Notes: generated by a model from the letters alone, not told the origin. A DNA stretch of 64,000 nt from Candidatus Omnitrophota bacterium (GCA_028715415.1 JAQURX010000004.1:20933-84932), one strand, 5' to 3'. Counted from the stretch's first letter, positions 1 through 34,813 are shown. Numbers and translations are program-made.

Positions 1-461
1 ACATCTACAATCCGTTTGCAATTATTTTTTACTTGCTCAATTCTTTCTTTAGCAGCAGGAGATAAACCGCTTTTCTCAAAATCATCTTTTAAGAGTTCAA
101 GATTCCCCTGAATGATAAACAGCGGATTACTGATTTCATGGCTCAAAGTAAGAACAGTTTCCGTAACTGCAGCAAGTTTGTTCTTTTTTATTAATTCATC
201 CTGCAAAACTATAATCTTGTGGTTATAATCAAAAAGGCTATTGATTAGATTTTGCAGGCTTTCCCTGCCAGTAACTACCCCCATAAGGAAAACAGTTGTA
301 GCTGTAAGTATAATACCCCAAACGTCGGTAGTAAACTTTTCAAAAGTACCGATTTTATTAATAAGAAGATACAAGAAAACCAGAAAGGGTATTACCCCTA
401 TAAGGCAAATTGTATTAGCATAATCCCTACCAGTCCTTTTTTTTAATTGGATTACTTCCAT
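1..461 (-). CDS. Sensor histidine kinase, N-terminal part (gene continues beyond window start); ATG at 461..459
   Basis: Reverse-strand translation from the ATG at 461 (preceded by AAGGAG) gives MEVIQLKKRTGRDYANTICLIGVIPFLVFLYLL... with hydrophobic TM segments, then the HisKA H-box SHEISNPLFIIQGNLELL. The frame stays open to position 1. Not in the ORF track because it has no stop inside the window. Confidence 0.6.
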   Translation of the reverse strand, partial: MEVIQLKKRTGRDYANTICLIGVIPFLVFLYLLINKIGTFEKFTTDVWGIILTATTVFLMGVVTGRESLQNLINSLFDYNHKIIVLQDELIKKNKLAAVTETVLTLSHEISNPLFIIQGNLELLKDDFEKSGLSPAAKERIEQVKNNCKRIVD

Positions 462-470
462 GGCGGCTCC

Positions 471-857
471 TTATTTTATTATTTTCCGGATAAAAATAAT
501 ATAACCTATAGCTATGGCGTTTAGGCAAGCAAGCACCACAACACCTGCAGCTATATCTTTTACCAATTTAATTTTAATATGGAACTTTTCTGTAATGGTA
601 TCCATTAGAAGCTCAATTGCAGTATTAAATATCTCCGCCATAAAAACAAGCGTTATAGTTATACAAAGAGCTATCAATTCAATCCCCTTAAGTTTAAAAT
701 AAATCCCTGCTAAAAAAGCCAGGATTCCGAAAATAAAAATTAACCGCATATTGTGATGGTATAAAAATAAATAAATAATGCCTTGCAAAGCAATTCTTAA
801 ACTTGTAAAGAAACCCTTTACCTTAAAAACATTCCTAAAGAAACTGTCCTTAGCCAT
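471..857 (-). CDS. dgkA: Diacylglycerol kinase / undecaprenol kinase family (DgkA-like) integral membrane protein
   Basis: 128 aa with three hydrophobic helices and the ...EIFNTAIELLMD... motif typical of the prokaryotic DAGK family. Size matches. Confidence 0.7.
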   Translation of the reverse strand: MAKDSFFRNVFKVKGFFTSLRIALQGIIYLFLYHHNMRLIFIFGILAFLAGIYFKLKGIELIALCITITLVFMAEIFNTAIELLMDTITEKFHIKIKLVKDIAAGVVVLACLNAIAIGYIIFIRKIIK

Positions 858-859
858 AC

Positions 860-1648
860 TTAACGCCTCCTATAGGCTTCAAGAAAAGAGTCGCAATAAA
901 TATTTTTATTAAGCAACAGCTCCGCCGTGATTACCGAATCCATCAATTCTTTGTCAAGAGGATCTAAAATTGCCGCGTCTAACCCGGAAGCAACTGCCAT
1001 AGTCAAAAAAGTCCGATTAATAAGATTCCTTGCAATCGTACCCTGTGAAACATTGCTCAATCCAATAATAGTTTTAGGGCTTGGGTCAGAAATAATCTTA
1101 AATTCGTGGATTGAATCTAAAATATCCTTCATCTGGGCTTGAGCGACGTTAACCGGCATAACTATAGGGTCAATATACAGGTCCTCGATAGGAAAACCCT
1201 TATCTGAACAAGTTGCGACAATAGTAGCTGCCAACTCAAGGCGCTGATCCTTGTTTTGAGGAATCCCTTTTGAGCTTATAGTTAAACCAATAAGTTTAGC
1301 ATTATACTTTTTCGCAAGGGGAATCAAAACTTCCATTTTTTCAATATCTGCAGTTGTAGAATTAATTATAACTTTGTTCTTCGCAATTCTTAAACCAGCT
1401 TCTATAACAAGAGGCTTGCTTGAATCTAAACAAAGCGGTTTATCAGTTACTTCTTGAATAACTTCAACGAGCCAAGGCAAATCCTGAACCGGCTGTTTTG
1501 AGGCAGGGCCGCAATTAATATCCAAAACATCGCTGCCTGAATTAACCTGATCCAAGGCACATTTTTGTATAACTGATTTATCTTTTTCTTTTATCGCCTT
1601 TGCGATATTTTGATACATCCCGTTAATTAATTCCCCGATAATAAGCAT
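860..1648 (-). CDS. acsE: Methyltetrahydrofolate:corrinoid/iron-sulfur protein methyltransferase (AcsE-like, pterin-binding TIM-barrel)
   Basis: 262 aa, the AcsE/MtrH pterin-binding family size. It lies in a cluster with the corrinoid Fe-S protein subunits and cooC. Confidence 0.65.
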   Translation of the reverse strand: MLIIGELINGMYQNIAKAIKEKDKSVIQKCALDQVNSGSDVLDINCGPASKQPVQDLPWLVEVIQEVTDKPLCLDSSKPLVIEAGLRIAKNKVIINSTTADIEKMEVLIPLAKKYNAKLIGLTISSKGIPQNKDQRLELAATIVATCSDKGFPIEDLYIDPIVMPVNVAQAQMKDILDSIHEFKIISDPSPKTIIGLSNVSQGTIARNLINRTFLTMAVASGLDAAILDPLDKELMDSVITAELLLNKNIYCDSFLEAYRRR

Positions 1649-1652
1649 ACAG

Positions 1653-2627
1653 CTACCTCTTTGTATTTATGAATAAATTATCCAAATACATATTAACTTT
1701 TTCAATTGCTTTAGGATGGCGCATAACTAAAATATCTGCCCCAGCCTGGATAAGAGCGGTGGCAGTAATAATTTCCCAAGCGATTCCCCGTTCTGACTCC
1801 ATCCCCCAAGAAGGGAATTCCGCATGGCTGACCTTAGCTTCTTTAGCTCTCCATGATTCTTGGGCAACGAAACAAATAAATGGGTTAGCAACAGTTTTAT
1901 CTCCTGACAAAGCCGCAAGGCGGGCTCTTTCCATTATTGAATACGCGTATTCTAAACCATAACCCAATGCCCCTATCGTCGGATTAATCACAATCCGGTC
2001 CAGTGGCAAACCCATGTCGGAAATAAGGATATTTAATTGCTTGGCAATATTAATATCAATGGGAGACTCTGCTATAATACTATGCCCATCAGCTAATACG
2101 CTTGCGGCAATCGTTTTATAATTATCCTGCACAGCAGAACCAATTAAGCATTTCTCTCCCTTTGCCGCTTCAGAACAAGCCGGTAAAATGATATTATCCT
2201 TGGCATCATCTCCGCAGCCTAAAATAATCAGAGGAACCCCGACTTTTTTTAATAGGCTGGAAATCAATTTTGCTTCCGAATCAGCCGGCTTATTTCCAAA
2301 ATCAGGATGCGCTGCCTGCAACCTAACGCATAGCGCCTTAGCTTTATACTCTTTAACACATTTATCAGCCCAGGCTAAAGGGTCAGAAAATACATCTTTA
2401 TAGGGCTTTACTAATTCATCCGGCCAATCGCTGGGGGCAGAATCCCAGATCTCAAAGACAACCTGAGGCTTATTAGGTATTGCACCCTCCTCAAACAAAA
2501 ACGGCAATGCCTTCTCTCCCCCGACGGTTAAAGTATTTTCTCTTGTCCCTCCGCTAGCCTTATTAGCTCCAATACTTAACGTATAAACTTCCCCTGCCCA
2601 ATTTTCCAACATTAGCTGACTTGCCAT
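1653..2627 (-). CDS. acsD: Corrinoid iron-sulfur protein small subunit (AcsD-like)
   Basis: 324 aa TIM-barrel-like protein next to acsC, cooC and acsE. Size and order match CFeSP small subunits. It overlaps cooC by 16 bp. Confidence 0.65.
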   Translation of the reverse strand: MASQLMLENWAGEVYTLSIGANKASGGTRENTLTVGGEKALPFLFEEGAIPNKPQVVFEIWDSAPSDWPDELVKPYKDVFSDPLAWADKCVKEYKAKALCVRLQAAHPDFGNKPADSEAKLISSLLKKVGVPLIILGCGDDAKDNIILPACSEAAKGEKCLIGSAVQDNYKTIAASVLADGHSIIAESPIDINIAKQLNILISDMGLPLDRIVINPTIGALGYGLEYAYSIMERARLAALSGDKTVANPFICFVAQESWRAKEAKVSHAEFPSWGMESERGIAWEIITATALIQAGADILVMRHPKAIEKVNMYLDNLFINTKR

Positions 2628-3364
2628 ATACTTTCTCCTATTCTCCGCAGCGTATCTAAACTTATGCCTTTATCATTTAAATCCATCAACGAACAACCAT
2701 TAATACAAATTTTCTCAATTTCTTTATCTTGAGGAATAGAACCGAGATAATTTAGCCCTAAATCCTGAATCTTCCCCGAATCTATCATATCGTTATAACA
2801 GTTTACAATCAAAAATGATTTTTTAATCTTGATCTCTAAATCTTTAGTTAAATCCTTTATCCTTTTTGCAGCCTTAAGTCCAACCACAGAAGCATTTGAT
2901 ACAATTACAAGTGCATCCGCTGACCGGGTTGTCCTTCTGGAAAGATGTTCAAGGCCTGCCTCATTATCAATAATAATAAAATCGTAATCATTGATCAGCT
3001 TTCCCATAATATTTCTCAAAGAATTATTCACATAGCAGTAACATCCGGGGCCTTCAGGCTTGCCCATTGTAAGAAGATCAAATCCATCAGCTTCAACTAT
3101 TGCTGTTTGTACTTGAAATTCAATAAACCTGTCTTTTGGCATTCCGCTGGGGATTTTTTCAGGATGGGCTGAAATGCCATCAAGAATATTCCCTATCGTT
3201 GCCTTTACTTCAAGCCCAAGGCTTTCCGCCAGATTACTATTCGGGTCAGCATCAATCGCCAAAACAGAACCTAATTTCTTTTCTTTGATTATCCTGACAA
3301 TTAAAGCAGCAATGGTAGTTTTTCCTACTCCACCCTTTCCTGCCATTGCAATAACATAACCCAT
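2612..3364 (-). CDS. cooC: CooC/AcsF-type nickel-insertion ATPase (MinD/ParA P-loop family)
   Basis: Has the deviant Walker A (MAGKGGVGKTT) and a CYCYVNNSL (C-x-C) motif characteristic of CooC Ni-binding. 250 aa. Confidence 0.75.
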   Translation of the reverse strand: MGYVIAMAGKGGVGKTTIAALIVRIIKEKKLGSVLAIDADPNSNLAESLGLEVKATIGNILDGISAHPEKIPSGMPKDRFIEFQVQTAIVEADGFDLLTMGKPEGPGCYCYVNNSLRNIMGKLINDYDFIIIDNEAGLEHLSRRTTRSADALVIVSNASVVGLKAAKRIKDLTKDLEIKIKKSFLIVNCYNDMIDSGKIQDLGLNYLGSIPQDKEIEKICINGCSLMDLNDKGISLDTLRRIGESIWQVS

Positions 3365-3367
3365 AGC

Positions 3368-5296
3368 CTAAAATCTAACCGAAGAAAACTTTGTTAAATC
3401 CGTATGCGGAAAAAACAATGCTGCCATATATTCATCCATATAACACGGATCAACCGATAACTCAAAATAAGTGATTTTCTTGGCAATCTCATCGGCAATC
3501 TTAATTGCTTCACTGGAAAGGAGCATCATACGAGAGCCTGCCAAAGAGCTATTCCCGATAAAGAAAAACCGTTTTCTATCAATATCCGGCAATAGGCCAA
3601 TTTCAACCGCTGATTCTATATTTAGAGAAGTGCCAAACCCCCCAGCAATAAAGATTTTTTTTACGTCTTTAAAATCAAATCCCATATGTTTGACTAAAAT
3701 TGATGTCGCGGAATAAATCGCAGCTTTAGCACGTTTCAGATTGTCAATATCAGCTTCAGTGATTACTATATCCTGCGTTGAATTTGCCTCCTCTTTAAAA
3801 ACGAGGATAAATTCCTTTCCCATTTCAACGTTACGAACGCGCTTATGATTGCTGACGTTAATCCTTCCGTTTTTATCAATAATTCCTGCCTTAAGCATCT
3901 GAGGAATTGCTGAAATATACCCCGAGCCACAAATCCCGCGTGGTTTTTCATCAGCAATTGTCTCAACTTTTACCTCAAGATTTTTTGGGTTAATTGTTAC
4001 ATTTTGAATTGCGCCATGGCTTGCCCTCATGCCACAAGTTACTCCGCTTCCTTCAAACGCAGGCCCCGCAGAAGCAGCGCAAGCAACCAAGAAATCATTA
4101 TTACCCAGGCAGATTTCACCGTTTGTGCCGATATCAATCAAGATGCTTAAATCCTTTTCTTTATAAACTCCACTTGAAAGAACACCTGCAGTTGTGTCTC
4201 CTCCGACGTAACTGGCCACTCCGGGAACACATGACAATAAACCTCTTGGATTTATATTAATCCCTGCTTCTTGCGCGCGAATCGTTGGAATAAAATTTGC
4301 CGTAGGAACATACGGCTCTTTCCTGATATAAGTCGGGTCAACACCCAACAAAAGATGGATCATAGTGGTATTTCCCGCACAGATTATACAAGTAGCATCA
4401 TTTAAATCAATTTTATGCTCTGTAATTAATTCCGTAATAATTTCGTTCATTGTATCGGTAACAGCATCATGCAATTTTGCCAATCCGTCTTCTTCTTTTG
4501 CATAAATAATACGCGTAATCACATCAGAGCCAAAACTTGCCTGCTTATTATAAGCAGCTTTAGTCCCTAACACTTTTTTATCGTTTAAATTAACCAGTTG
4601 CCCGGAAATCGTGGTTGTCCCTATATCAAAAGCAAGGCCAAAATTTTTTAAAGACGTATCCCCCGGCTCAATCAAAACAATTTCAACAGAATCATTTCTT
4701 TTCCCCAGTGTTACAGTAACCTTCCAGTTTGAATCACGTAATAGCTCCCCAAGCTGTTTAATATTTGAAAGCCCTGTTTGAGAAACGGACAGTTTCTTCT
4801 TCTTCTGGATTTCGCTATACAACCTTTCCAGGTCACTGACTCTATCTTCTAAGTTTGGCTCAGGAAGTTCTAAATAAGCCTTTGTCGCAAGTGGAGAATG
4901 CTCAAATAATTCTCCCCCTAAAATAAACTTAATCGGCTCAATTTCCTCTGCTTCAGAGTAAAGCCCTTTAAGCCTTGCTTCCAATTCTTGAGGAGATAAT
5001 TTCTCTAAACTTTGACGTGATTCCGGGGGAACTTCAACCTCTAAGTCGCTATGGATTGTGGTTAGGCAAGCCAAATAAATATGCCTTCTTTTTTCTTCAA
5101 GGCTTAAGACTCCGGAAGATTGAGTTGAAACATTGCCTTTCTTTAATACAACCTTACACCTTCCGCAAACCCCATCTCCCCCGCAGGCAGAATTAATATG
5201 AACCCCTGCCGAAATTGCCGCTGAAAGTATAGTTTTGTCCTTTTCAACCTCTACAGTTTTGTTATCAGGATAAAACGTAACTTTAAATTTTTCCAT
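3368..5296 (-). CDS. Reductive activator of corrinoid Fe-S protein (RACo/AcsV-like): N-terminal plant-type [2Fe-2S] ferredoxin domain plus ASKHA ATPase domain
   Basis: N-terminus carries SACGGDGVCGRCKV plus a later Cys, as in a 2Fe-2S ferredoxin. The protein is 642 aa, matching RACo. It sits between acsC and cooC as in acetogens. Confidence 0.6.
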   Translation of the reverse strand: MEKFKVTFYPDNKTVEVEKDKTILSAAISAGVHINSACGGDGVCGRCKVVLKKGNVSTQSSGVLSLEEKRRHIYLACLTTIHSDLEVEVPPESRQSLEKLSPQELEARLKGLYSEAEEIEPIKFILGGELFEHSPLATKAYLELPEPNLEDRVSDLERLYSEIQKKKKLSVSQTGLSNIKQLGELLRDSNWKVTVTLGKRNDSVEIVLIEPGDTSLKNFGLAFDIGTTTISGQLVNLNDKKVLGTKAAYNKQASFGSDVITRIIYAKEEDGLAKLHDAVTDTMNEIITELITEHKIDLNDATCIICAGNTTMIHLLLGVDPTYIRKEPYVPTANFIPTIRAQEAGININPRGLLSCVPGVASYVGGDTTAGVLSSGVYKEKDLSILIDIGTNGEICLGNNDFLVACAASAGPAFEGSGVTCGMRASHGAIQNVTINPKNLEVKVETIADEKPRGICGSGYISAIPQMLKAGIIDKNGRINVSNHKRVRNVEMGKEFILVFKEEANSTQDIVITEADIDNLKRAKAAIYSATSILVKHMGFDFKDVKKIFIAGGFGTSLNIESAVEIGLLPDIDRKRFFFIGNSSLAGSRMMLLSSEAIKIADEIAKKITYFELSVDPCYMDEYMAALFFPHTDLTKFSSVRF

Positions 5297-5297
5297 T

Positions 5298-6626
5298 TTA
5301 CAGATTTTTTAGAAAACTTGGGATTCCAGCTGCTTCCTTGGGGCCAACGATAACATTTAAACCACAAGCCTCCTCCAATTCTCCGCTTAAAACAGCAACA
5401 TATCCGGGAATGATAATTTTCTTATGGGTTACAGCTTCTTTAACGCCAAATTTATCAATTGATTGGCTGATCTTCTCTGGCGTAAACTTTTCCGCCGCCC
5501 AGGCAGTCAAAACAGACATGCCTTCAGTATCAACGCTTAAGATATAAGACGGAATTTTACTCGCCTCTACTTCGCCAAGCACAGTATAATAGCTAAGAGA
5601 AAAGTTAGTGGTAATCAACACAGGTGATTTATCATTAGCAGCGCCTATAGGATAAAGTTTTGGCTCTATCTGTAAAGGCTTTTGCGGGTCAGTATAGATA
5701 TTTTGCCGCAAAGTCAGGAGAGAAAGTGTTTGCCAGGAATCAATTCCTTTTAACAAAACAATCCCGGCGTATTTTGAGATATAAGTCGCAGCCTCCATCG
5801 CTTCCTCAAATGGGTCAGTATTCTCAACAATCGTTAAAAGCGGGTAGCCCAAAGAACGATTAGACTTTTTTAAAGCCTGTCTCCTAACCTGGGTAAGGTC
5901 CCATAATTTTTCTGAAATTGGTTTTACTTCGGTATCAATCACTAAATCGCTAATGCCTTGCTTGGCTAATTCTTGAGTTAAAACAGACACCTCTTCTAAA
6001 TTCGGAGCAGAAACCACCAATGCTGATTTATACTCTTTTGCCAAAAGCCCGATTTCAGAAAGATTGCCTTTAACCGCACGGTAAATTAAGGGATTCTTCC
6101 CTTTTAAAATTTCAAGAGCCTGCTTTAAAGCTGATAAATCATTACTCATCAATACAAGAGGAAGATTGATATTGCTTGTTACAATCTTTAACACATCAAT
6201 AAATCTTTTTGCGTCGGTATTTTGCTTGAGGGCAATAAGATTAACATTCAACTGCTGTCCGACCCTTTCAAACGCAAGCTCTTTGATTTTTGAAAGTTTC
6301 TTCTTAATCTCATCATCCTTAATGTTATCTTCTATAATAAAACCGATTCCGCAAGGATTCCTGAACTTCTCTTCGTGCCGGAACATTACTGTTTCATTCC
6401 CAATATCTATTTTGGTTTCACCGGTTCCAATACTAATTAATTTTATTGGAGGCTGAGCTGACGCTTCCAAAGCATCCTTAGCCTCTTTGCTTAAATATGG
6501 GCATTTTTCAATCGCCACAGCTTTCTTTGCCAACTGCATGGCAAAGGCAAGGCAAGTAGCAAAGCCACATTCACGGCAATTGGTTTTTGGTAATAACTTA
6601 TAGATGTCAAGTCCTGAAAGCGCCAT
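5298..6626 (-). CDS. acsC: Corrinoid iron-sulfur protein large subunit (AcsC-like) with N-terminal [4Fe-4S] C-x2-C-x4-C-x16-C motif
   Basis: MALSGLDIYKLLPKTNCRECGFATCLAFAMQLAKKAVAIEKCPY is the canonical AcsC N-terminus. 442 aa. Confidence 0.75.
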   Translation of the reverse strand: MALSGLDIYKLLPKTNCRECGFATCLAFAMQLAKKAVAIEKCPYLSKEAKDALEASAQPPIKLISIGTGETKIDIGNETVMFRHEEKFRNPCGIGFIIEDNIKDDEIKKKLSKIKELAFERVGQQLNVNLIALKQNTDAKRFIDVLKIVTSNINLPLVLMSNDLSALKQALEILKGKNPLIYRAVKGNLSEIGLLAKEYKSALVVSAPNLEEVSVLTQELAKQGISDLVIDTEVKPISEKLWDLTQVRRQALKKSNRSLGYPLLTIVENTDPFEEAMEAATYISKYAGIVLLKGIDSWQTLSLLTLRQNIYTDPQKPLQIEPKLYPIGAANDKSPVLITTNFSLSYYTVLGEVEASKIPSYILSVDTEGMSVLTAWAAEKFTPEKISQSIDKFGVKEAVTHKKIIIPGYVAVLSGELEEACGLNVIVGPKEAAGIPSFLKNL

Positions 6627-6628
6627 TT

Positions 6629-7048
6629 TTACTCTCCGGTTAGATTAAATAAATTTAGTGGGTTGGATTTAAATAATTCCTTCGCAAAATTCTCAGAAAC
6701 CTTGTGTCCTTTTATTTTATTCAGCTGTTCAATCAAGCCTTCCTTTAAACTTATTTCAATATTTCTCTTACTATCTAAATTCTTAAATAGAATACGGATT
6801 CTTTTCCCATCAATCTTCTGGATATTTCCTTTGCCATACGTAGCCCCGCTTGAAAGCTGCAAGCCGTCAATAAGGCAAGATTTAGGCCTTTGATTTGCCC
6901 CCCAAACCAAAACATCCAAACCAAAATACTTTTTGCACTTTAATTTCTTTAACGCAATATTTCCGGCCATAAGCCCTAAAACAAGATATGGGCCCAAGTG
7001 GCCATGGAATTTAACAGCTTCCTTAAGAGTTATCCTATTGTTGTTCAT
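6629..7048 (-). CDS. FmdE/FwdE-domain family protein (FHGH motif), Cys-less variant
   Basis: VKFHGHLGPYLVLGLMAG resembles the FHGHxCPG signature of the formylmethanofuran dehydrogenase subunit E-like family, but Gly replaces the Cys. 139 aa. Confidence 0.45.
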   Translation of the reverse strand: MNNNRITLKEAVKFHGHLGPYLVLGLMAGNIALKKLKCKKYFGLDVLVWGANQRPKSCLIDGLQLSSGATYGKGNIQKIDGKRIRILFKNLDSKRNIEISLKEGLIEQLNKIKGHKVSENFAKELFKSNPLNLFNLTGE

Positions 7049-7056
7049 TTTAAGCT

Positions 7057-7725
7057 TTATCCTTTATTAATTAGGCTGGCTAGATAACCGGCACCAAAAC
7101 CATTATCGATATTTACAACTGCCACACCCGGAGAACAACTGTTTAACATTGTTAGTAGTGCTGACAGGCCACCAAAACTTGCTCCATACCCACAGCTTGT
7201 TGGAACGCTCACCACAGGACAACTCACCAAACCGCTTACCAAGCTTGCCAAAGCCCCTTCCATCCCTGCTACAATTACAATAACTTTGGCCTTACGTAAA
7301 ACATCCATATGGTGCATTAATCTATGCACCCCGGCAACTCCAACATCAAAAAGCCTTACTACCAGATTACCCATTATTTCCAAAGTAACAACTGCCTCTT
7401 GAGCTACTGGAATATCAGATGTACCGGCAGACATAACCACAACTAAACCTTTTTTTAAGTTCTTACCATGATTATAAAATCCGAGCTTTGCTAAAGAATC
7501 GTACTTAAGGCAGGTAATTGATTTCTTAAGATAAGTAAAAGTGCTTTTATCTAATCTGGTAAGAAGAAGGTCCTGCTTATTCTTAAGCAGTTCCTTACAG
7601 ATTGATTTAATATTTTCTTTTGTTTTTCCGGGGCAATATACAACTTCCGGAAAACCTTTACGCTTTTGCCTGTCTATATCTACCTTAGCAAAACCAAGGT
7701 CAGAGAAACCATGCCGAGAAACCAT
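7057..7725 (-). CDS. larB: LarB-like (PurE/AIR-carboxylase-related) protein; possible nickel-pincer cofactor biosynthesis carboxylase
   Basis: The C-terminal 150 aa form a PurE-like fold (SAGTSDIPV ... VAGMEGALASLVSGL ... PVVSVPTS). An extra N-terminal domain of about 70 aa is present, as in LarB. Confidence 0.55.
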   Translation of the reverse strand: MVSRHGFSDLGFAKVDIDRQKRKGFPEVVYCPGKTKENIKSICKELLKNKQDLLLTRLDKSTFTYLKKSITCLKYDSLAKLGFYNHGKNLKKGLVVVMSAGTSDIPVAQEAVVTLEIMGNLVVRLFDVGVAGVHRLMHHMDVLRKAKVIVIVAGMEGALASLVSGLVSCPVVSVPTSCGYGASFGGLSALLTMLNSCSPGVAVVNIDNGFGAGYLASLINKG

Positions 7726-7732: not shown

Positions 7733-8041
7733 TTATCCCCGGAAAATAATAAAAAGCAAAACAAGAACTATCAGGGTGGATAATATATAAAAATCGTTAA
7801 AATAAATAAAATCACTAAATTTATCGCTAAAGGAATATTCTACCTCTTTTTCGCTCTTTGGCGAATGCATACGGCCTTGCCTCTGAAAAGAAGTTACTTG
7901 TTCCCGCTTAAAACGAAGGTACACTCCCCCAATTTTATACGCCGGGATAGAACCCTTTTCAGCCAACTCCATTACATCCTTCTCAGAAACGCCTAAGATT
8001 AAAGAAACATCTCTTACAGTCAAAAGTTTTTCTTCTGCCAT
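7733..8041 (-). CDS. Small HTH_17 (excisionase/MerR-like) DNA-binding domain protein with C-terminal transmembrane anchor
   Basis: LLTVRDVSLILGVSEKDVMELAEKGSIPAYKIGGVYLRFKREQV matches the HTH_17 pattern. C-terminal FYILSTLIVLVLLFIIF is a hydrophobic helix. Confidence 0.5.
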   Translation of the reverse strand: MAEEKLLTVRDVSLILGVSEKDVMELAEKGSIPAYKIGGVYLRFKREQVTSFQRQGRMHSPKSEKEVEYSFSDKFSDFIYFNDFYILSTLIVLVLLFIIFRG

Positions 8042-8065: not shown

Positions 8066-8572
8066 TTATTTTTCAATTTTTCCCGAAGCAACCCAACTGT
8101 CAATTGCTTTTCTTTCAAATCTCCAGTCGCTTCCTTCTTTACTACCGGGCATTCTTCCTGAATTAGCCCACTCCATGATTGAATTAAGGTCAACTTCCAA
8201 ATACCGCGCTAATTCTTCCGAATTCATCAGGTCATGAAGCATTAAACATTTACCTTCGAGTATCGCTCCCTCTGCAACATTCAATTTAGCAGGACAGATA
8301 TCTCCTTCAACAAGAGCGGAAGGCAAAAGCGTTAATCTTTCTTTAGCTACTATCTTTCCTTTAACTTTGCCTCCAATAATGATATTATCTCCGACGATAT
8401 CAGCAAACACTGTTGCGGTATTCCCGATTGTCAAATTACCTTTAGTCTCTAAATTTCCTTCAAATTTACCATTTATGCGCAGGTTGACCGGGTCCTTAAA
8501 AACCAAACTTCCCTGCATAGAAGCATCAACATCTAAAGTCTTTTCTTCAACTTTCTTTTTACTAAACGCCAT
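8066..8572 (-). CDS. Bactofilin-domain protein fused to a C-terminal HTH_17 DNA-binding domain
   Basis: The central section (INGKFEGNLETKGNLTIGNTATVFADIVGDNIIIGGKVKGKIVAKERL ... VEGDI) has the G/V/I-periodic beta-helix pattern of bactofilins (DUF583). The C-terminus SEELARYLEVDLNSIMEWANSGRMPGSKEGSDWRFERKAIDSWV is an HTH_17. Confidence 0.55.
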   Translation of the reverse strand: MAFSKKKVEEKTLDVDASMQGSLVFKDPVNLRINGKFEGNLETKGNLTIGNTATVFADIVGDNIIIGGKVKGKIVAKERLTLLPSALVEGDICPAKLNVAEGAILEGKCLMLHDLMNSEELARYLEVDLNSIMEWANSGRMPGSKEGSDWRFERKAIDSWVASGKIEK

Positions 8573-15434: not shown

Positions 15435-18400
15435 ATGCATAAAAGCATTAAAAACAAACAACCAAATTACAAATTAACTAAAAACGGCGAATTTATTATT
15501 GATAACTACAACCACGCAAAGCCGTTTGCTAATTTCTTCCCCGGGATTGCCGGAAAATATGGCATACCGATGTGGGCTTTTTATGTAAACCGCGGGCAAG
15601 GAATCTGTAGCTTTGGGACTAAAGACAAAGACCATGCAATTTTAGAGTTCTTTCCAGCAAACAAAGCCTGGGCTACTACTTCAATCTTAGGTTTCCGGAC
15701 ATTTATAAAAATCCTACGAGGCAACAATACGCTATTTTACGAGCCATTCCATAATGGAGCAACAAACTTAAATTTTGACCTCTCCAATAGAATGATCATT
15801 ACTTCTCAAGGCATGTCCTTAGAAGAAACTAACCAAACCTTGGGATTAAAGGTTAAGGTAGAATTTTTTACTATACCAAATGATTCCTACGCTGGCCTAG
15901 GCAGAATAATATCAATTCAGAACCTAAAGAAAACCCCAATTAATATGCAGATTCTAGACGGCCTACCGCAGATACAGCCGTTTGGAATGAATAGCTGGCT
16001 TGTCAAAGAAATGAGCCGTACTATAGAAGCATGGATGAATGTAGAAAATTTAGAAAACAAGGCTCCTTTTTTTAGGCTTGCGGTTGACCCACAAGACAGG
16101 CCGGAAGTAATTCACATAAAAGAAGGAAATTTTTATTTAGGCTACTATCATGATGGCAAAAATACCAAAATCATAAAACCTATAGTTAATCCATATCATA
16201 TCTTTGGTGAAATTACCGACTTCTCTTTCCCAAAAGAATTCTTAAAAACAAAGAAATTTGGCTATCCAAAGAATGAATTTGCAAATGGGATAACCCCCTG
16301 TGCATTCTCTCTATTTGATATTAACCTATCCTCAAACAAAACAATTGTGTTTAACTCAATAGCTGGTTACATGCGTAGCGTGGAAGCTTTAAACAAATCA
16401 ATAGATAGGTTATCTACCCTTGAATACCTGACAAACAAAAAAGAAGAAAACAGAAACATAATTAATGAGCTAAAGAATGACATCATAACCAACTCAGACT
16501 CAAATGAATTCAATCATTACGTTACGCAAACTTACCTTGATAATATTATGCGCGGAGGATATCCTTTAGTCTTTGAATCTAAAAATCAGAAATCGGTCTT
16601 CTATCTTTACTCCCGCAAGCATGGAGACTTAGAAAGGGATTACAATAGGTTCCAACTGCAACCAACGTATTTTTCTCAAGGAAATGGTAATTATCGTGAC
16701 GTAAACCAAAATAGGCGCATGGACGTATGGTTCAATCCTGAAGTTAAAGATGAAATTTTAATTAACCTAATTAATCTTCTGCAAACTGACGGGTTCAATC
16801 CCTTAGTAGTAAAAGGGCTGAATTTTGTATTAACCAACCCTGAAACTTTAAAATCAAAATTATCTAGGATTATTTCTGAAACTACCAAGATAGACTCTTT
16901 AATCTCTTTTCTAAAAAAGCCTTTTTCTCCCGGAGACGTTATACTTTTCTTAGAAGACCATTCAATCAAGATTGCTTCTTCTTATGATGAGTTGTTAAAC
17001 ACTATTATATCCTCCTCATCCAAAATCAATGAAGCTGAGCATGGCGAAGGTTTTTGGACTGACCACTGGACATACAACTTGGATCTTATAGAGAATTATT
17101 TGAAAGTCTACCCGGAAGATTTATGTAATATTATTTTTGACAAGCGTGTTTTTACCTTCTTTGATAACACTGAAACAGTCAAGCACCGCTCTGAAAAATA
17201 TGTCCTTTACAATGGGCTTCCAAGGCAATTACATTCAGTGGGGCTTGATATTGCAAAAAAAGATTTGATTAAAAAACGCTCCACACTTGCCCATGTAGTA
17301 AGAAGCAATTTCGGGGAAGGAGAAATTTACGAAACGACGCTTATCAATAAACTACTGTGCTTAGCAGTAAACAAACTCTCTTCAATAGATCCTTTTGGGA
17401 TAGGCATTGAAATGGAAGCCAATAAACCAAACTGGTATGACTCTTTAAATGGCCTTCCTGCCCTCTTTGGATCTTCCAGCTGCGAAACTTTTGAATTAAA
17501 GAGGCTTTGTGAATTCTTAAAAGAAGCCCTTGCTAAAACAAACCACAAGAAGATTACTATCACTGAAGAGATTTATCATTTCTTAAACTCGCTAAATAAA
17601 TTACTTGAAGACTATCTAACAAGCAATGGGACAGACAAAGACCTTATCTATTGGGATAAAAGCAATACTTTAAAAGAAAGCTACAGAGATAGCACTAAAC
17701 TGGGGCTTAGCGGGGCTGAATTAGACATTAGCTCTGATGAATTACTCCGCTTTCTTAACAATTCAATCACTAAACTTAATTCGGGCCTTAAAAAAGCGTT
17801 TGATAAAAGTGAGCAGATGTATTACTCGTATTTTATCAATGAGGTTACTGAGTTTGATACAATAAAAGATAACTCTATAAAGCCTAAGAAATTTAAACAA
17901 ATTAAATTGCCTTTCTTTTTAGAATCCCAAGTCCATGCATTAAGGACTTTGGACGACAAAACTTCAATAACAAACCTATCAAAAGCCGTATCCAAAGGAA
18001 GCCTTTTTGATAAGAAATTGAAGCATTATAAAGTTAACAGCCCTTTAAAAGAAATGCCTGAAGAAATTGGAAGAACAAGGATATTTACACCCGGCTGGCT
18101 TGAAAATGAATCTATATGGATGCACATGGAATATAAATATCTTCTCGAGCTGTTAAAAAAAGGACTGTTCGAAGATTTTTACCGGGATTTCAAGAATGTA
18201 CTAATCCCCTTCCAATCCCCTAAAAGATACGGCAGGAGCATTTTAGAGAATTCCTCATTTATTGTTAGCAGCGCTTATCCAGACAAAAACTTACATGGTA
18301 ACGGTTTTGTTGCCAGGCTTTCAGGCTCAACTGCAGAATTTCTTCAGATATGGCTCATCATGAATACGGGGTTAAATCCCTTCTTTCTTAATGAAAAAGG

Positions 18401-18677
18401 TGAGCTAAATTTACGATTTTCTCCGATACTAGCCGGATGGTTATTTGACAAGAAAAATAGGACATATACTTTTAATTTTTTAAGTAAAGTTAAAGTTTGC
18501 TACCATAACTTAAAAAAGAAGGACACATTTGGGATTAATGCAGCAAAGATTAAAAAGATTATCTTTATTGATCAGAAAGAAACCTTGGTAGAATTGAATA
18601 CTAATGTTATTCCCGCCCCCTATGCCAATCAAATAAGAAAGCGCCAAATCCAGAAAATAGATATTTATTTAGATTAA
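15435..18677 (+). CDS. Large (1080 aa) cytoplasmic protein, probably a GH94-like (alpha/alpha)6 glycoside phosphorylase/hydrolase superfamily member. It is the only plus-strand gene in the window.
   Basis: AAGGAA RBS 9 nt upstream of the ATG. The N-terminal KPFANFFPGIAGKYGIPMWAFYVNRGQGICSFG resembles the conserved N-terminal block of cellobiose/chitobiose phosphorylases (..PW.N.L.N....GYSF). The central NGNYRDVNQNRR and GEGFWTDHWTYNLDL segments resemble six-hairpin glycosidase motifs. No signal peptide. Confidence 0.35.
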   Translation: MHKSIKNKQPNYKLTKNGEFIIDNYNHAKPFANFFPGIAGKYGIPMWAFYVNRGQGICSFGTKDKDHAILEFFPANKAWATTSILGFRTFIKILRGNNTLFYEPFHNGATNLNFDLSNRMIITSQGMSLEETNQTLGLKVKVEFFTIPNDSYAGLGRIISIQNLKKTPINMQILDGLPQIQPFGMNSWLVKEMSRTIEAWMNVENLENKAPFFRLAVDPQDRPEVIHIKEGNFYLGYYHDGKNTKIIKPIVNPYHIFGEITDFSFPKEFLKTKKFGYPKNEFANGITPCAFSLFDINLSSNKTIVFNSIAGYMRSVEALNKSIDRLSTLEYLTNKKEENRNIINELKNDIITNSDSNEFNHYVTQTYLDNIMRGGYPLVFESKNQKSVFYLYSRKHGDLERDYNRFQLQPTYFSQGNGNYRDVNQNRRMDVWFNPEVKDEILINLINLLQTDGFNPLVVKGLNFVLTNPETLKSKLSRIISETTKIDSLISFLKKPFSPGDVILFLEDHSIKIASSYDELLNTIISSSSKINEAEHGEGFWTDHWTYNLDLIENYLKVYPEDLCNIIFDKRVFTFFDNTETVKHRSEKYVLYNGLPRQLHSVGLDIAKKDLIKKRSTLAHVVRSNFGEGEIYETTLINKLLCLAVNKLSSIDPFGIGIEMEANKPNWYDSLNGLPALFGSSSCETFELKRLCEFLKEALAKTNHKKITITEEIYHFLNSLNKLLEDYLTSNGTDKDLIYWDKSNTLKESYRDSTKLGLSGAELDISSDELLRFLNNSITKLNSGLKKAFDKSEQMYYSYFINEVTEFDTIKDNSIKPKKFKQIKLPFFLESQVHALRTLDDKTSITNLSKAVSKGSLFDKKLKHYKVNSPLKEMPEEIGRTRIFTPGWLENESIWMHMEYKYLLELLKKGLFEDFYRDFKNVLIPFQSPKRYGRSILENSSFIVSSAYPDKNLHGNGFVARLSGSTAEFLQIWLIMNTGLNPFFLNEKGELNLRFSPILAGWLFDKKNRTYTFNFLSKVKVCYHNLKKKDTFGINAAKIKKIIFIDQKETLVELNTNVIPAPYANQIRKRQIQKIDIYLD

Positions 18678-18696: not shown

Positions 18697-21522
18697 TTAA
18701 AACTTCTTGCGGTAGTATAAACGGAAGATTTGCTGCGTGTCAATTGTCCTTAAGGATCCGCCATAAGGATCCCAGCCGATATCAAGAACTCCTCCCATGT
18801 AAGGATCCCTGCTTGCTTCGCCGTATTGAAAGCTAAAATCTTCATTCTCCGACTTGCGATAAATTAATTCCACGAATGCATTATGGTGGCCAGTAACTTT
18901 ATTTATATTTTGTACTATATTATCCAAATCCTGCCAACGTGAATAGGTATATTTCAAAAATATCGCTAGTTTCTTCATTGGTGCATAGCTAACTTCGAAA
19001 CCCACATGATTCATATTATCATCCACTTGCCCAGCTTTTTCAAAAGGATTACGCGTATAATCAAGATATAGCTGCAGATTATCCAAAGGGCTTAACCTTA
19101 GGCCTGCTTTAAAAATATTGTAATACGGATAAGGTGCACGGGCAAAATGCTGCTGATCAGTAAGAAAATTTAACACATCCCTATAAGCATTTCCATTTTG
19201 ATATGTTAATAAGGAATTACTCCCATCGTTTAAAATCCCCCTTGGGAAATTATCATACGCAAGCGAAATATCATTTGTAAATTCCCAAATTCCGTTTAAA
19301 GAAATCCAATCCAAGAACTGGTATTCAGCACCCAGAGAACTGGTAACAATGCTTGGATCTTTATTGTCTTCAATATAAGTATTAACATAATACTCTCTGC
19401 TAACAGGATTAAAAATAAAGGGATCTTTATTGCCATAGGTTTGATGCATTTTTTGATATATGCCCAGGCCTTTAGTAGTCAGCTTGTCATTTACTTCCCA
19501 GCTAAATTCATCCCTAAAAACATTTTCAATAAACTTGCCTTCACTGGAATGCACATTACGCACATCAACAAGGTTACTTACTTTTTTATCCCAAAGAAGG
19601 CTTTCTACTCTAAGGCCGAATGTACTGCGACCTATATCAATGCCATTCCCGACGCCATAATTCCTAACATCATCCCAGCTTAAACCCTGGCCTTCTCCTT
19701 GATAATAATATTGGAACGGCTTACGAAAATGAATATGCCTAGACCACCATTCGTCATCGCGTGTTTCCACATAAGAAGAAAGAGGCTCATCAAAAGATTT
19801 ATCCATGCGCGCAGCAAAAATTCTAAATTTGGTAAAAAATCTCTCCCCTTCTTCAGGCTGAATTCCAAAATAATCGTATTTGGTATCCATAATGCTTGCA
19901 GAAGGAAACCTTCCCAAAATAGCAAACTGGTAAGCATTGCCATTTTCTTTTGTCTGGAAATCAGATTGGGTTGTATCATTTGATGAATTAGAATAAGCGA
20001 ATTCAGCTGTTGTTTTAATACCTTCAATAGGCTCAAAACCTAAATCCATAGCACCGACATAATTTTGTGCATCAACATTCATATTATCGGGTTGATTGTA
20101 ACCTATTCTTGTCGTTGCAGTAAAACCTACGGCCAAATTATCCATAATGGACTGCTTAACGCGCGTCGCAGTAAGAAAATTATCCATAACCGAATAATCC
20201 TGCCAAAGGTCTTTAGGAGAAGCAATGTTGGTAGTAATAGAAGTCTTTTCTCCCAGAGAATAATCAAAATTAAAGCCGCGTAAAGCAGTCAGGCGCTGGC
20301 CCTCACTATCTCTTGTATAAAACGACAATGTATTATCCCAATATCCCTTAGTAAAATCAGCCCCTGCGTTATTAACTGTTCCCCTTGTCCATTTATTCAA
20401 CCAAGGGCTGTTTTCCCACCAAATACGATTATTGGATAATCTCAAAGGATCATCAAAAGTCACTGCTTGATTTTCATAGGCAATAGGATAAGCCCTAAAT
20501 TTTAAATTATCTTGATTGTAATCATACCAAAGTTCACGAACAGGTTGAAACTGACGATAAATTTTTAATGATGGGATTTGAAATGTATCAGAAGATGGAT
20601 CGGTAAAACCACCACTAATAGTGGTAGCGTCTGTCTGATTATTTTTTACTTTCATTTCAGGCAGGTTAAAAGAATTTCCAAAACGATTCGTATCTACTGT
20701 TTGATTAATTGTATATCCTGTATTCGACCAATATTTTAATTCAATATCAGCGCTATCGCCGAACGCGCTATGCACCGTTGTCCTAGCGCTTTTTCCAGTA
20801 AAACTCCAGGGGTCAACCACTATGTTGCTATAAAAATTAGAGCCTTCTTTGTTCTCTGTATTAAGTTTTACTGCTAATCTATCAAATATCCTAGGATCAT
20901 AGGTATTTTCCCTATTATCAAGTGCAGTATTTGAACGCATACGGTAATTCTTTTCATTTAAATCCCAATTAGCGCGTTTCCAATAGTCATCCTTACTTGT
21001 TGCGCCCATTCTCGTCTGAGCCTCTCCGCTAATTTTAATTCCCGCAACTTTAATTCCGTCTTCTTTTTTTTCAGTTTTTTCTTCTTTAACTACATAATCA
21101 TCAGCCCGAATAACATTATTTTCTTCTTTTGCTGTACCTTTATTACTTTTGCTGGCCAAATTAAACGCATTATCCATCTCCCGCTCTCTAAGCTGGCTTT
21201 CTCTTACCACACGAACCCTATCAGAAGCTTTTTGAGGAATCACTTCCTCTTGTTTAAAGGATTCGGACTGCGCATTGGTTGATTTAAAAATATTATTTAT
21301 ATACGATTTTGCTACCTTATTATTAGGCTCAACAAGCAAAACCTTATTGAATTCGGCCAAAGCTTCATCGTATCTTCCCATCTTATAGAAAGTAATACCG
21401 AATTCACAGAGATAATCAGCAGCTTGAGGCCCGGCAAAAACAACGGAAAAAGAAAATAGGATTGAAACAATACTGCAGAATAAAATAACCAGATGTAGTC
21501 GCTTAAATGGAAGGAATTTCAT
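18697..21522 (-). CDS. Giant (941 aa) putative outer-membrane beta-barrel protein with N-terminal signal peptide and TPR segment
   Basis: Signal peptide MKFLPFKRLHLVILFCSIVSILFSFSVVFA. TPR-like AADYLCEFGITFYKMGRYDEALAEFNKVLLVEPNN. A charged linker follows, then about 750 aa rich in Y/W/N/D/G/T with alternating polarity. The C-terminus ends ...FRLYYRKKF, the aromatic terminal residue typical of OM barrels. Confidence 0.45.
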   Translation of the reverse strand: MKFLPFKRLHLVILFCSIVSILFSFSVVFAGPQAADYLCEFGITFYKMGRYDEALAEFNKVLLVEPNNKVAKSYINNIFKSTNAQSESFKQEEVIPQKASDRVRVVRESQLREREMDNAFNLASKSNKGTAKEENNVIRADDYVVKEEKTEKKEDGIKVAGIKISGEAQTRMGATSKDDYWKRANWDLNEKNYRMRSNTALDNRENTYDPRIFDRLAVKLNTENKEGSNFYSNIVVDPWSFTGKSARTTVHSAFGDSADIELKYWSNTGYTINQTVDTNRFGNSFNLPEMKVKNNQTDATTISGGFTDPSSDTFQIPSLKIYRQFQPVRELWYDYNQDNLKFRAYPIAYENQAVTFDDPLRLSNNRIWWENSPWLNKWTRGTVNNAGADFTKGYWDNTLSFYTRDSEGQRLTALRGFNFDYSLGEKTSITTNIASPKDLWQDYSVMDNFLTATRVKQSIMDNLAVGFTATTRIGYNQPDNMNVDAQNYVGAMDLGFEPIEGIKTTAEFAYSNSSNDTTQSDFQTKENGNAYQFAILGRFPSASIMDTKYDYFGIQPEEGERFFTKFRIFAARMDKSFDEPLSSYVETRDDEWWSRHIHFRKPFQYYYQGEGQGLSWDDVRNYGVGNGIDIGRSTFGLRVESLLWDKKVSNLVDVRNVHSSEGKFIENVFRDEFSWEVNDKLTTKGLGIYQKMHQTYGNKDPFIFNPVSREYYVNTYIEDNKDPSIVTSSLGAEYQFLDWISLNGIWEFTNDISLAYDNFPRGILNDGSNSLLTYQNGNAYRDVLNFLTDQQHFARAPYPYYNIFKAGLRLSPLDNLQLYLDYTRNPFEKAGQVDDNMNHVGFEVSYAPMKKLAIFLKYTYSRWQDLDNIVQNINKVTGHHNAFVELIYRKSENEDFSFQYGEASRDPYMGGVLDIGWDPYGGSLRTIDTQQIFRLYYRKKF

Positions 21523-33051: not shown

Positions 33052-33107
33052 TTCATTTCCCCCTTGTTTATTTCTGTTTTAAAAAGATACTTTCCAAAAA
33101 TTTAAAA

Positions 33108-33568
33108 GGCAAGCAGAATAAGCCGAGTTTTGTATCAATGCGAATTCTTGCGCATCCAAGTGATCATTTCTCTCGATCCTGGGCTTTTTCCCAGGACTCT
33201 AGCAGTTTACCCTCCCGTCCAGATATCTTTTCCATAATATCTAAAAGCGGACCACTTTCAACTCGCTTTAATAGCGAGAAAAACGGGACTATTGCACCTT
33301 ACTCCACGCGGGGTTTTCCGTCCAAACTGCATCACTGCAGCTTAGGGTAGTCTCTTACACTGCCTTTTCACCTTTACCCCCACACCAATTTTTATATAGC
33401 AGATGCTATAGCAAAATTGGTGTGGGGGAAGTTTATTTTCTGTGGCACTTTCCATGGCTTTGAAAAATTTCAAAACCCCTCTCAATTAAAGAGCGCGTTT
33501 GTCCTCTGGAGCCCGGACTTTCCTCCCCCGCACCAATTAAGTGCGGAAGCGACCACCTTCTGCTTGCC
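33108..33568 (-). ncRNA. rnpB: RNase P RNA, bacterial type A (rnpB)
   Basis: The minus-strand RNA contains GGAGGAAAGUCCGGGCUCCAGAGG (P4 5' strand), GGUAAAGGUGAAAAGGCAGUGUAAGAGACUACC (P10.1/P11 region) and ACAAAACUCGGCUUAU (P4 3' strand). The termini GGCAAGCAGAA / UUCUGCUUGCC pair as P1, and a P3 hairpin CCGCAC-uuaauug-GUGCGG is present. The region has no credible ORF. Confidence 0.9.
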
Positions 33569-33982
33569 TTAATTTTTACTTTTTACTGCCTTCTTAATCG
33601 CTAAATTAGCCAATTTATCCGCGCCAGAATTTTCTTCTCTTGGGATATGCTTCACGCAGACTTCTTCAAACCCCTGTATCAAACGAATTGCTTGGTTATA
33701 CAAAGGTATGATGTTAGGATGTTTGACTTTATAATCTTTGTTAATCTGCCTTGCGAGCAATTGGCTATCTGTATTAATCTGAAGAATTCTTGCCTTTAAA
33801 ATTAATGCTTCCTGCAATCCATAGATAAGCGCTGTATATTCAGCAACATTATTTGTAGCATTCCCAATAAAATCAGAAATATTTTTTACAACTTCCCCAC
33901 CTGAACACAAAACCACCCCTATACCAGCAGGCCCGGGATTTCCTTTTGACGCGCCATCTATATATAAATCAATCTTATTCAT
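33569..33982 (-). CDS. rnhA: Ribonuclease HI-like protein (short type-1 RNase H)
   Basis: DGASKGNPGPAGIGVV ... NNVAEYTALIYGL ... NTDSQLLARQI ... GADKLAN places the DEDD catalytic residues in the RNase H fold. 137 aa. Confidence 0.7.
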   Translation of the reverse strand: MNKIDLYIDGASKGNPGPAGIGVVLCSGGEVVKNISDFIGNATNNVAEYTALIYGLQEALILKARILQINTDSQLLARQINKDYKVKHPNIIPLYNQAIRLIQGFEEVCVKHIPREENSGADKLANLAIKKAVKSKN

Positions 33983-33991
33983 TGATAAAGA

Positions 33992-34708
33992 TTATTCCAC
34001 AAACAAGATCCTATTGCATATTTCACAAGTAACCAAACGTTCATACATTTTTATTAAATTTATTACCTGAGGAGGGACAAACATATTGCAGCCTCCGCAA
34101 TTATTCCCTTTTACCGCAACAATTGCCAGGCCATCGCGGTTTAGAAGAATCCTATCGTATTGAGATAATATCTTTGGGTCAATTTCAGGCAAAACTTGTT
34201 TTCGCTGTGCTTCTAATTGGGAAAGCCTATCGTCAATTTCTTTAATCCTGTCTTCAACTTTTTTCTTTTCACCAACAAAAACCTTTTCTTCTCCCTTAAG
34301 CCTTTCTTTTTCAGCTTCAACTTCTTTTTTCGCTTTATCCGAAAGGTCAAACAATTCTAAAATCTTATCTTCAATAACAGAACCGTCTGCTTTTGAATCC
34401 TGGATCTGCTGCAGCATCGCCTGATATTCTTTATTTGTCTTAAGAGCATATAGTTGGCCTTGAAGTTTCTTTCCTGCTTCTTCCTTTGAAGCCAACTCCA
34501 ACTCTTTATCTTTTCTCTGTTTCTGAAAATCAAGAAATTTCTTTTCTAACTCCGCTAATCCTTGTTTTTTAGCCTCAAATGATGCTTCCATTACCTTAAT
34601 TTCAGCAGGCTTAGCGGTTTTTTCGTTATTTAGAGTATAAATCTCACTATCAATTGCCTGTAATTTTACAAGGCTACCTATCTGTGTTCTTAAATCAACA
34701 TTAGACAA
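33992..34708 (-). CDS. COG1579-type coiled-coil protein with C-terminal C4 zinc ribbon (start corrected to the TTG at 34708)
   Basis: The C-terminus CGGCNMFVPPQVINLIKMYERLVTCEICNRIL has the Cx2C...Cx2CxRIL ribbon. A long coiled-coil precedes it. The ORF-track N-terminal 38 codons overlap two tRNA genes. AAGGAGA lies 7 nt before the TTG start. Confidence 0.65.
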   Translation of the reverse strand: MSNVDLRTQIGSLVKLQAIDSEIYTLNNEKTAKPAEIKVMEASFEAKKQGLAELEKKFLDFQKQRKDKELELASKEEAGKKLQGQLYALKTNKEYQAMLQQIQDSKADGSVIEDKILELFDLSDKAKKEVEAEKERLKGEEKVFVGEKKKVEDRIKEIDDRLSQLEAQRKQVLPEIDPKILSQYDRILLNRDGLAIVAVKGNNCGGCNMFVPPQVINLIKMYERLVTCEICNRILFVE

Positions 34709-34733
34709 GATATACTCTCCTTTTTTATAAATA

Positions 34734-34807
34734 TGGGCGCAATAGGACTCGGACCTATGACCTCTACAATGTGAATGTAGCGCTCTAACCAACTGAGCTA
34801 TGCGCCC
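34734..34807 (-). tRNA. tRNA-Val (anticodon CAC)
   Basis: Minus-strand GGGCGCAUAGCUCAGUUGGUUAGAGCGCUACAUUCACAUUGUAGAGGUCAUAGGUUCGAGUCCUAUUGCGCCCA folds into a cloverleaf: 7-bp acceptor stem, GUUCGAGUC T-loop, anticodon loop UUCACAU. Confidence 0.9.
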
Positions 34808-34813
34808 GTAATC

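Follow-up and report, generated by a model that had tools for sequence, protein, structure and literature searches.

The window analyzed here is a stretch of 64,000 nucleotides from a metagenome-assembled genome (MAG) of a Candidatus Omnitrophota bacterium (GCA_028715415.1, JAQURX010000004.1:20933-84932), and the element in question is a run of co-oriented genes close to its beginning, at positions 860 to 7725. Judging from their sequences, the five genes between 860 and 6626 are the corrinoid and methyl-transfer half of the bacterial Wood-Ljungdahl (acetyl-CoA) pathway. We consider it probable (roughly 0.8) that they are one part of a split acs operon, with the partner genes of the lineage, those for carbon monoxide dehydrogenase (CODH, AcsA) and acetyl-CoA synthase (ACS, AcsB), at a separate locus. 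An earlier note on this DNA had suggested that both enzymes are encoded elsewhere or that the module is used in a split configuration, which is what the comparative data indicate, through the gene order of relatives and a clade of acsB genes that have no acsC beside them. The five genes are the following.

860-1648, minus strand: acsE, methyltransferase, 262 aa (NF005719, 315.7 bits against a cutoff of 259; Pfam Pterin_bind).
1653-2627, minus strand: acsD, small subunit of the corrinoid iron-sulfur protein (CFeSP), 324 aa (NF003376, 416.5 bits against a cutoff of 280; Pfam CdhD).
2612-3364, minus strand: CooC/AcsF-type ATPase of the MinD family, putative nickel insertase, 250 aa (PDB match and motifs).
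3368-5296, minus strand: RACo/AcsV, reductive activator of corrinoid protein, 642 aa (2Fe-2S, linker, middle, and ASKHA domains).
5298-6626, minus strand: acsC, CFeSP large subunit, 442 aa (NF003195, 576 bits against a cutoff of 306).

All seven open reading frames (ORFs) that the earlier note had called, these five plus an FmdE-like gene and larB upstream of acsC, lie where it had drawn them on the minus strand, and have matches to hidden Markov models (HMMs), motifs, or PDB structures. Every gene from position 1 to about 15300 is on that strand, and neighboring genes are a few bases apart or share a few. AcsC combines an N-terminal [4Fe-4S] domain (PF04060) with a corrinoid domain of the CdhD fold (PF03599). 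In RACo all Pfam scores are above cutoff (RACo_C_ter, 338 bits; Raco_middle, 195; RACo_linker, 69; Fer2, 46), and its 689 bits to the AcsV model NF040756 fall under the exception-level cutoff of 800. AcsE likewise stays under the cutoff of the narrower model NF040758 (176 bits; cutoff, 370), and its identity across about 50 syntenic Omnitrophota loci is 71 to 79%.

The ATPase gene between RACo and acsD, which overlaps the start of acsD by 16 bp, was matched by none of the curated HMMs specific for CooC or AcsF. The closest solved structure is CooC1 of Carboxydothermus (3KJE, E=2e-18), and in the alignment with it the deviant Walker A motif GKGGVGKT is kept, as is the nickel-binding CXC motif (GCYCY versus QCYCR). 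The gene occupies the internal cooC/acsF slot of intact acs operons, and its product is 48 to 50% identical to the paralogue found in that slot versus 33 to 35% to the acsA-linked CooC. A role in the ATP-dependent delivery of nickel to ACS/CODH is putative, and it is the acsF-slot position that suggests it.

None of the genes for CODH, ACS, Fhs, FolD, MetF, LarC, LarE, or LarA was found within the 64-kb window, where Pfam was run over every ORF of at least 110 aa, and a tblastn search of the window with AcsA, AcsB, LarC, and FolD from related loci gave chance matches only (best E=0.5). Upstream of the module, acsA and acsB are absent over 57 kb of the window. The earlier claim that neither gene lies within about 7 kb on either side thus holds for the upstream side; for the downstream side the window could not carry it, as it ends 860 bp past acsE, and a Logan contig extends the sequence there by about 580 bp. 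In syntenic relatives, this downstream side contains small genes followed by tilS and ftsH, with no acsA or acsB within 10 kb.

The loci of the relatives were found by searches with the FmdE-like protein and with AcsC, and an ORF and BLAST table was made of all of them. A block of about 25 kb is common to about 50 related genomes (51 nonredundant loci), in the order gatC-gatA-gatB-ctpA-deacetylase-tsaD-mgtC-bactofilinHTH-HTH-larB-[FmdE]-acsC-RACo-[cooC]-acsD-acsE-dgkA-(small genes)-tilS-ftsH. AcsA or AcsB was found within 10 kb in none of these 51 loci. The larB gene is present in 49 of them and the FmdE-like gene in 30; where the latter is missing, larB usually abuts acsC, with gaps of 1 to 165 bp in the 19 loci in which both genes were called. 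Forty-one of the loci extend as far as acsD, and 34 of these have an orthologue of the window cooC, with 59 to 70% identity. It is cleanly missing between RACo and acsD in the other seven (L017, L020, L028, L035, L036, L050, and L055), which have a gap of 14 to 325 bp where measured and no tblastn trace of the gene. The position of dgkA after acsE is constant in most of the syntenic loci. By its named members, the clade belongs to the class Velamenicoccia, order Gygaellales, families Profunditerraquicolaceae and UBA12090, with UBA1562 (L020), Amyimicrobium silvilacustre (L040), and GWF2_43_52 (L056) as named carriers of the LarB-type locus. No two of the 80 best AcsC loci, in which AcsC identity goes down to 48%, have the same whole-genome shotgun prefix (assembly), so each of these genomes seems to have no copy of the corrinoid protein other than the one in the module.

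Other Omnitrophota have the whole operon in one piece, as folD-cooC-acsA-cooF-oxidoreductase-acsB-acsC-RACo-cooC-acsD-acsE, examples being L051 (a complete chromosome), L063, L081, and L090 to L094. The order acsC-RACo-cooC-acsD-acsE of the window is identical to that of the intact clusters L081, L090 to L092, and L094, and it also matches published acs clusters (PMC8671834). The phylogenetic placement that the earlier note had asked for was examined for AcsC: in its tree the split modules all group together in a single clade, whose sister is the AcsC of Omnitrophota in which AcsB is adjacent. Such a tree suggests that the operon broke once, between acsB and acsC, in a common ancestor. Nested in the split clade are two loci (L027:922-12189 and L053:6472-17899) in which the five-gene module lies inside a trp operon, between trpF and trpB, with neither larB nor the FmdE-like gene there; the module is therefore a discrete unit that would have moved at least once.

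Two side observations concern these operons. In the single-cell genome JBHPFI01 (L093:10001-13695) the operon is cut elsewhere, running fhs...acsA...acsB-acsC and then into unrelated genes, with RACo, acsD, and acsE away from acsC. Many Omnitrophota, e.g., L051:6164-9991, L070, and L080, have an intein with a LAGLIDADG homing endonuclease in AcsB, at about residues 513 to 1055, which gives ORFs of 1172 to 1279 aa versus 725 (proteins P0144, P0148, P0151, P0152, and P0231).

The complementary half of the operon was found in the metagenomes. A first AcsB search, seeded with the intact operon L081, recovered the intact-operon clade only, with acsB followed by acsC in all six contexts. The reading that there is no orphan AcsB was overturned by a metagenome scan of 80 loci seeded with a deliberately diverse AcsB alignment, ten of which carry an orphan acsB (L102-L104, L106, L107, L115, L116, L118, L162, and L168). 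In these, acsB is followed by TPR-polA-glgA-coaE-rho-prfA-prmC-murA in place of acsC, and the upstream flank, where visible, reads fhs-fchA-folD-metF-acsA-cooF-oxidoreductase (FNOR)-acsB. The AcsB tree mirrors that of AcsC, with the orphan AcsB as one clade, sister to the AcsB of intact Omnitrophota operons. Queried with the AcsB of L106, the orphan clade comprises at least 120 clusters (at 90% identity) that are 82 to 88% identical to the query, and where a cluster has a source name, it is nearly always Omnitrophota. Among the matches are MDD4980346/MDD5592366 and MDD4939390/MDD5553014, with the same MDD prefix as the window MAG, whose proteins in the window are MDD5431779 to MDD5431793; we read this shared prefix as the same submission batch.

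The two halves can be placed on one map through L053. The six genes after the orphan acsB (L106, L118, L162, and L168) match the first six ORFs of this locus, in the same order and with 42 to 89% identity, and L053 continues with trpG-D-C-F-acsC-RACo-cooC-acsD-acsE-trpB-A. In the nearest nonsyntenic relatives, acsB would therefore be about 12 kb from the module. Protein P0361, labeled "Deltaproteobacteria bacterium," was tried as a link to L053 within the same MAG and was rejected, as it is on JBLMWI01 and not on JBLMZF01, the contig set of L053. As a side observation, the orphan cluster in L162:7271-12181 and in the equivalent region of L168 lacks acsA and cooF (folD-metF-oxidoreductase-like-acsB), a state that fits the truncated carbonyl branch of an AcsA-less pathway, which a survey of the phylum gives for these families (Seymour et al. 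2023, PMC10066038).

Taken as a history, one ancestral rearrangement would have cut the acs operon between acsB and acsC, after which the acsC...acsE half may have settled beside larB in a stable housekeeping block, leaving AcsB and AcsA to be encoded at a separate fhs-fchA-folD-metF-acsA-cooF-oxidoreductase-acsB locus. Later on, the module would have hopped between its larB and trp sites, and acsF, the FmdE-like gene, or acsA would have been lost piecemeal. By the established biochemistry of these protein families, the module would work as follows. The methyl group of methyl-tetrahydrofolate is transferred by AcsE to Co(I) in the corrinoid iron-sulfur protein, which consists of AcsC and AcsD. 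When the cobalt is accidentally oxidized to Co(II), RACo brings it back to Co(I) with ATP and a reduced 2Fe-2S cluster, and acetyl-CoA synthase receives its nickel from the CooC/AcsF-type ATPase. Once methylated, the corrinoid protein passes the methyl group to the A-cluster of AcsB, which joins it with CO from AcsA and with CoA. In this lineage, the partner enzymes AcsA and AcsB for the module would be made from the second locus.

The identities and order of the genes, their synteny across the lineage, and the complementary orphan acsB cluster in Omnitrophota are direct observations, and on the example of the relatives an orphan acsA-acsB cluster is likely to be present in the window's own MAG as well. 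Several points weigh against a split operon with its other half elsewhere. None of the 20 AcsB accessions checked is near the MDD54317xx range of the window MAG; the searched genome collection does not contain this MAG (the best AcsC match there has 74% identity), and the MAG's own AcsB was not found. The direct map from acsB to acsC comes from trp-type relatives only (L053 and L027), with no genome of the LarB type. Seven of 41 syntenic loci have lost CooC/AcsF, as might also be expected if the lineage no longer had to mature ACS. Finally, MAGs are incomplete, and one contig cannot tell presence from absence elsewhere in the genome.

Some of these points lead to the most serious alternative, that the module stands alone in a lineage that has lost CODH/ACS and either gives the methyl group to another acceptor or demethylates another substrate. 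The empty surroundings, 10 kb in the 51 loci and the 57 kb upstream in the window, are what such a module would show, and the L081-seeded search gave, in six contexts and ten accessions, intact-operon AcsB only and none from the window MAG; the dispensability of the CooC/AcsF gene in those seven loci would agree as well. We nevertheless regard it as unlikely, as the large Omnitrophota clade of AcsB without adjacent acsC is the exact complementary half and includes proteins with the MDD prefix, read as belonging to the submission batch of the window MAG, and acsB maps some 12 kb away from the module in those relatives that are closest without being syntenic. The CooC/AcsF orthologue is kept, with the identity given above, in 34 of 41 loci, no conserved gene for an alternative methyl acceptor lies next to the module, and the phylum survey scores these families as having AcsB to AcsE (PMC10066038).

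The remaining question is whether the two genes between the module and the upstream housekeeping genes belong to it. They are as follows.

6629-7048, minus strand: short protein of the FmdE fold, HGHLGP type, 139 aa (PF02663, 64 bits against a cutoff of 22.9).
7057-7725, minus strand: larB, pyridinium-3,5-biscarboxylic acid mononucleotide synthase (first step of nickel-pincer cofactor synthesis), 222 aa.

The second gene had been called LarB-like, with ordinary PurE as the competing assignment. It is LarB and not PurE, with 286.2 bits to the LarB model NF033503 (cutoff, 175) versus 33.5 bits to purE (cutoff, 149.6), and it aligns end to end with the LarB of Lactiplantibacillus plantarum (7MJ0, E=2.4e-67). 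The stretch TMLNSCSPG corresponds to TMLNSCASG there, so that MLNSC is kept, and in it, near the C terminus, lies the catalytic cysteine, which we take to be Cys221 of L. plantarum LarB. In L059 and L066, a LarC (PF01969, 384 aa) follows larB and fills the slot of the FmdE-like gene. Since LarB is genuine and LarC adjoins it in these two relatives, the most plausible reading of the site is a lar cluster that is a remnant or varies between genomes. A 382-aa gene upstream of acsC in L064 was also considered as LarC and was rejected; by eye, it resembles an acyl-CoA dehydrogenase.

For the first gene, the FmdE assignment was confirmed by running the family model on 6629-7048; the PF02663 match spans profile positions 1 to 97 of 133. 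The AlphaFold model has a pLDDT of 90 and a TM score of 0.78 to both 2GVI and 2GLZ, and in an alignment of 31 homologues H15, H17, C58, D61, and H115 are invariant. The earlier note had pointed to the replacement of a conserved cysteine in FHGHLGP. The replacement is real when compared with 2GVI (glycine for cysteine; FHGHKCP in that structure), but it is not unusual, as 131 of the 150 nearest cluster representatives of the FmdE family carry HGHxGP and glycine is thus the majority state. The subfamily is tight, with only two full-length clusters at 50% identity within a much larger set of short FmdE proteins. The name FmdE is historical and implies no function for this protein; fmd/fwd genes (formylmethanofuran dehydrogenase) were found neither in the window nor in any of the roughly 50 syntenic loci. 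Because of the conserved histidine and cysteine residues, and only because of them, our guess is a small metal-binding accessory protein. A literature search joining FmdE and corrinoid returned nothing relevant. A newly described family of nickel-pincer enzymes consists of aldo-keto reductases, not FmdE, and families that use the cofactor are still emerging (PMC13524815).

One could see LarB, the FmdE-like protein, and sometimes LarC as functional accessories of the module, for a cofactor of the nickel-pincer type or for nickel handling, in a unit of seven genes. The gaps from larB through acsC are only 2 to 8 bp, 49 of 51 loci have LarB immediately before acsC, the LarC of L059 and L066 would make the junction a hotspot for nickel-related genes, and in L055 LarB, FmdE, and CooC are absent together. 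However, the adjacency to the acs module is uninformative because conservation and tight packing are just as strong over the rest of the gatC-ftsH block, so that position carries no specific signal; because the FmdE-like gene is dispensable, being absent from 21 of 51 loci; because the five-gene module occurs elsewhere, in the trp operons of L027 and L053 within the same AcsC clade, without LarB or FmdE; and because both genes are missing from the intact acs operons of sister Omnitrophota and other phyla. Scans for promoters and terminators, made to find operon boundaries, stayed at chance level, and Rfam gave no riboswitch near the cluster. To our knowledge, no Wood-Ljungdahl enzyme uses a nickel-pincer cofactor, which also counts against an accessory role, and we hold such a role to be quite improbable. 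The nickel-cofactor or C1 theme by which the earlier note had linked these neighbors to the module thus has no specific support; larB and the FmdE-like gene appear to be neighbors by descent, and a functional link to the acs module is unsupported. A variant, in which Gygaellales recruited larB, with larC or an FmdE-fold protein in the same slot, beside the corrinoid genes to serve that system, seems to us very doubtful; larB might then help to handle nickel or provide a pyridinium-dicarboxylate cofactor with which ACS/CFeSP is matured, and this would be the first role in C1 metabolism for the orphan FmdE-fold family and for a Lar gene.

An artefact of assembly or binning, with acsA and acsB lost at a contig break or a chimeric join, could be suspected in a MAG contig whose window edge is 860 bp from acsE, but it is refuted by replicated synteny and has a negligible probability, as the HTH-larB-[FmdE]-acsC and acsE-dgkA junctions are found again in over 50 independent assemblies, which come from different studies, were made with different assemblers, and include contigs of 100 to 646 kb and a single-cell genome.

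The surroundings of the seven genes are as the earlier note had described them, with dgkA and a histidine kinase after acsE and HTH and bactofilin genes before LarB, and Pfam bears out each of these calls.

3-461, minus strand: HisKA protein, cut by the window edge (Pfam).
471-857, minus strand: dgkA, a housekeeping gene and the downstream boundary of the module (PF01219, 94.7 bits).
7733-8041, minus strand: HTH_17 protein, a conserved upstream neighbor of larB (Pfam).
8066-8572, minus strand: fusion of bactofilin and HTH_17, a conserved upstream neighbor of larB (Pfam).

The "histidine kinase" after dgkA (L001:549-1121) has only 190 aa, with a HisKA domain and no ATPase domain, and its slot is filled by a response regulator or small ORFs in relatives. 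The fusion of bactofilin with an excisionase-type HTH_17, together with the stand-alone HTH_17, is kept as a pair upstream of larB in about 50 loci and has weak, subthreshold matches to the MADS1 antiphage HTH model. Farther upstream are MgtC, TsaD, a polysaccharide deacetylase, CtpA, and GatBAC. The sole plus-strand gene of the first 20 kb (15435-18677) codes for 1080 aa with no Pfam match and is conserved in relatives, divergent from gatC (about 1075 to 1085 aa in L003 and L005); it is followed by a TPR protein of 941 aa at 18697-21522. The rest of the window is housekeeping, with genes for lipid synthesis, LepA, aromatic amino acid synthesis, Ruv, RpoD, DnaG, LptD, nucleotide-sugar enzymes, GGDEF proteins, DnaK/DnaJ/GrpE, ClpB, the RNase P RNA, and two tRNAs. 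The RNA genes lie at 33103-34886 on the minus strand (class A RNase P RNA, 232 bits; tRNA-Val; tRNA-Met); ORF 33992-34822 overlaps the tRNAs and is spurious, and the RNase P RNA has an RNase H-like gene (33569-33982) directly beside it. All 2-kb bins have a negative GC skew and nearly all genes of the window are on the minus strand, so the window belongs to a single replichore and contains neither an origin nor a terminus.

The presence of the pathway in these Omnitrophota families is already published, while the two-locus arrangement, its single origin, and the relocation to the trp operon were not found described in the portions of the literature that were available. These are details of gene order rather than new biology, and no new enzyme system emerges from them. 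The case documents the evolution of the acs operon, with one ancient cut, a hopping module, and piecemeal gene loss. It is also a caution for pathway calling in MAGs, since with Wood-Ljungdahl genes at two loci, a contig-level view makes the pathway of an abundant Omnitrophota clade look incomplete when it would not be.

When compared with known systems, the module is closest to the canonical acs cluster of Moorella thermoacetica and Carboxydothermus (cooC-acsA-acsB-acsC-orf7(RACo)-acsF-acsD-acsE), with the same five genes in the same order. The difference is that acsA and acsB are contiguous with them there, whereas in this lineage they would have fhs, fchA, folD, and metF as their neighbors at a different locus. 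The earlier note had proposed Dehalococcoides as a precedent. Dehalococcoides mccartyi is said, in work of 2014 by Zhuang and coworkers, to keep acsB, acsC, and acsD and to be without acsA, acsE, and metF genome-wide. The likeness is a subset of acs genes at one locus, but here acsE is present and acsA and acsB are most likely elsewhere in the genome, so that the difference would be one of arrangement and not a gap in the pathway; the orphan clusters of relatives also carry metF and usually acsA, unlike a pathway of the Dehalococcoides type. The Omnitrophota literature is the better precedent, as Profunditerraquicolaceae and UBA12090 are reported to have a complete or AcsA-less Wood-Ljungdahl pathway with AcsB to AcsE and are predicted to be acetogenic (Seymour et al. 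2023, PMC10066038). That survey covers the same phylum and families and scores gene presence; gene order, the split into two loci, and the adjacency of larB were not found in the part of its text that was available.

For the neighbors, the comparison with the Lar system of L. plantarum (LarB/LarC/LarE) is partial, with a LarB equivalog above cutoff and LarC adjoining it in two relatives, and with larC, larE, and larA not in the 64-kb window. The FmdE-like protein is predicted to have the same fold as 2GVI (Thermoplasma), 2GLZ (Desulfitobacterium), and 3D00 (Syntrophus), with TM scores of 0.66 to 0.78, and shares with them the core motifs HGH...P and C..DG.Q...G.T.GKGN. It differs from these structures in having no zinc-ribbon tail and in the replacement of two of the three motif cysteines of 2GVI, the first of these replacements being common to most close relatives in the family.

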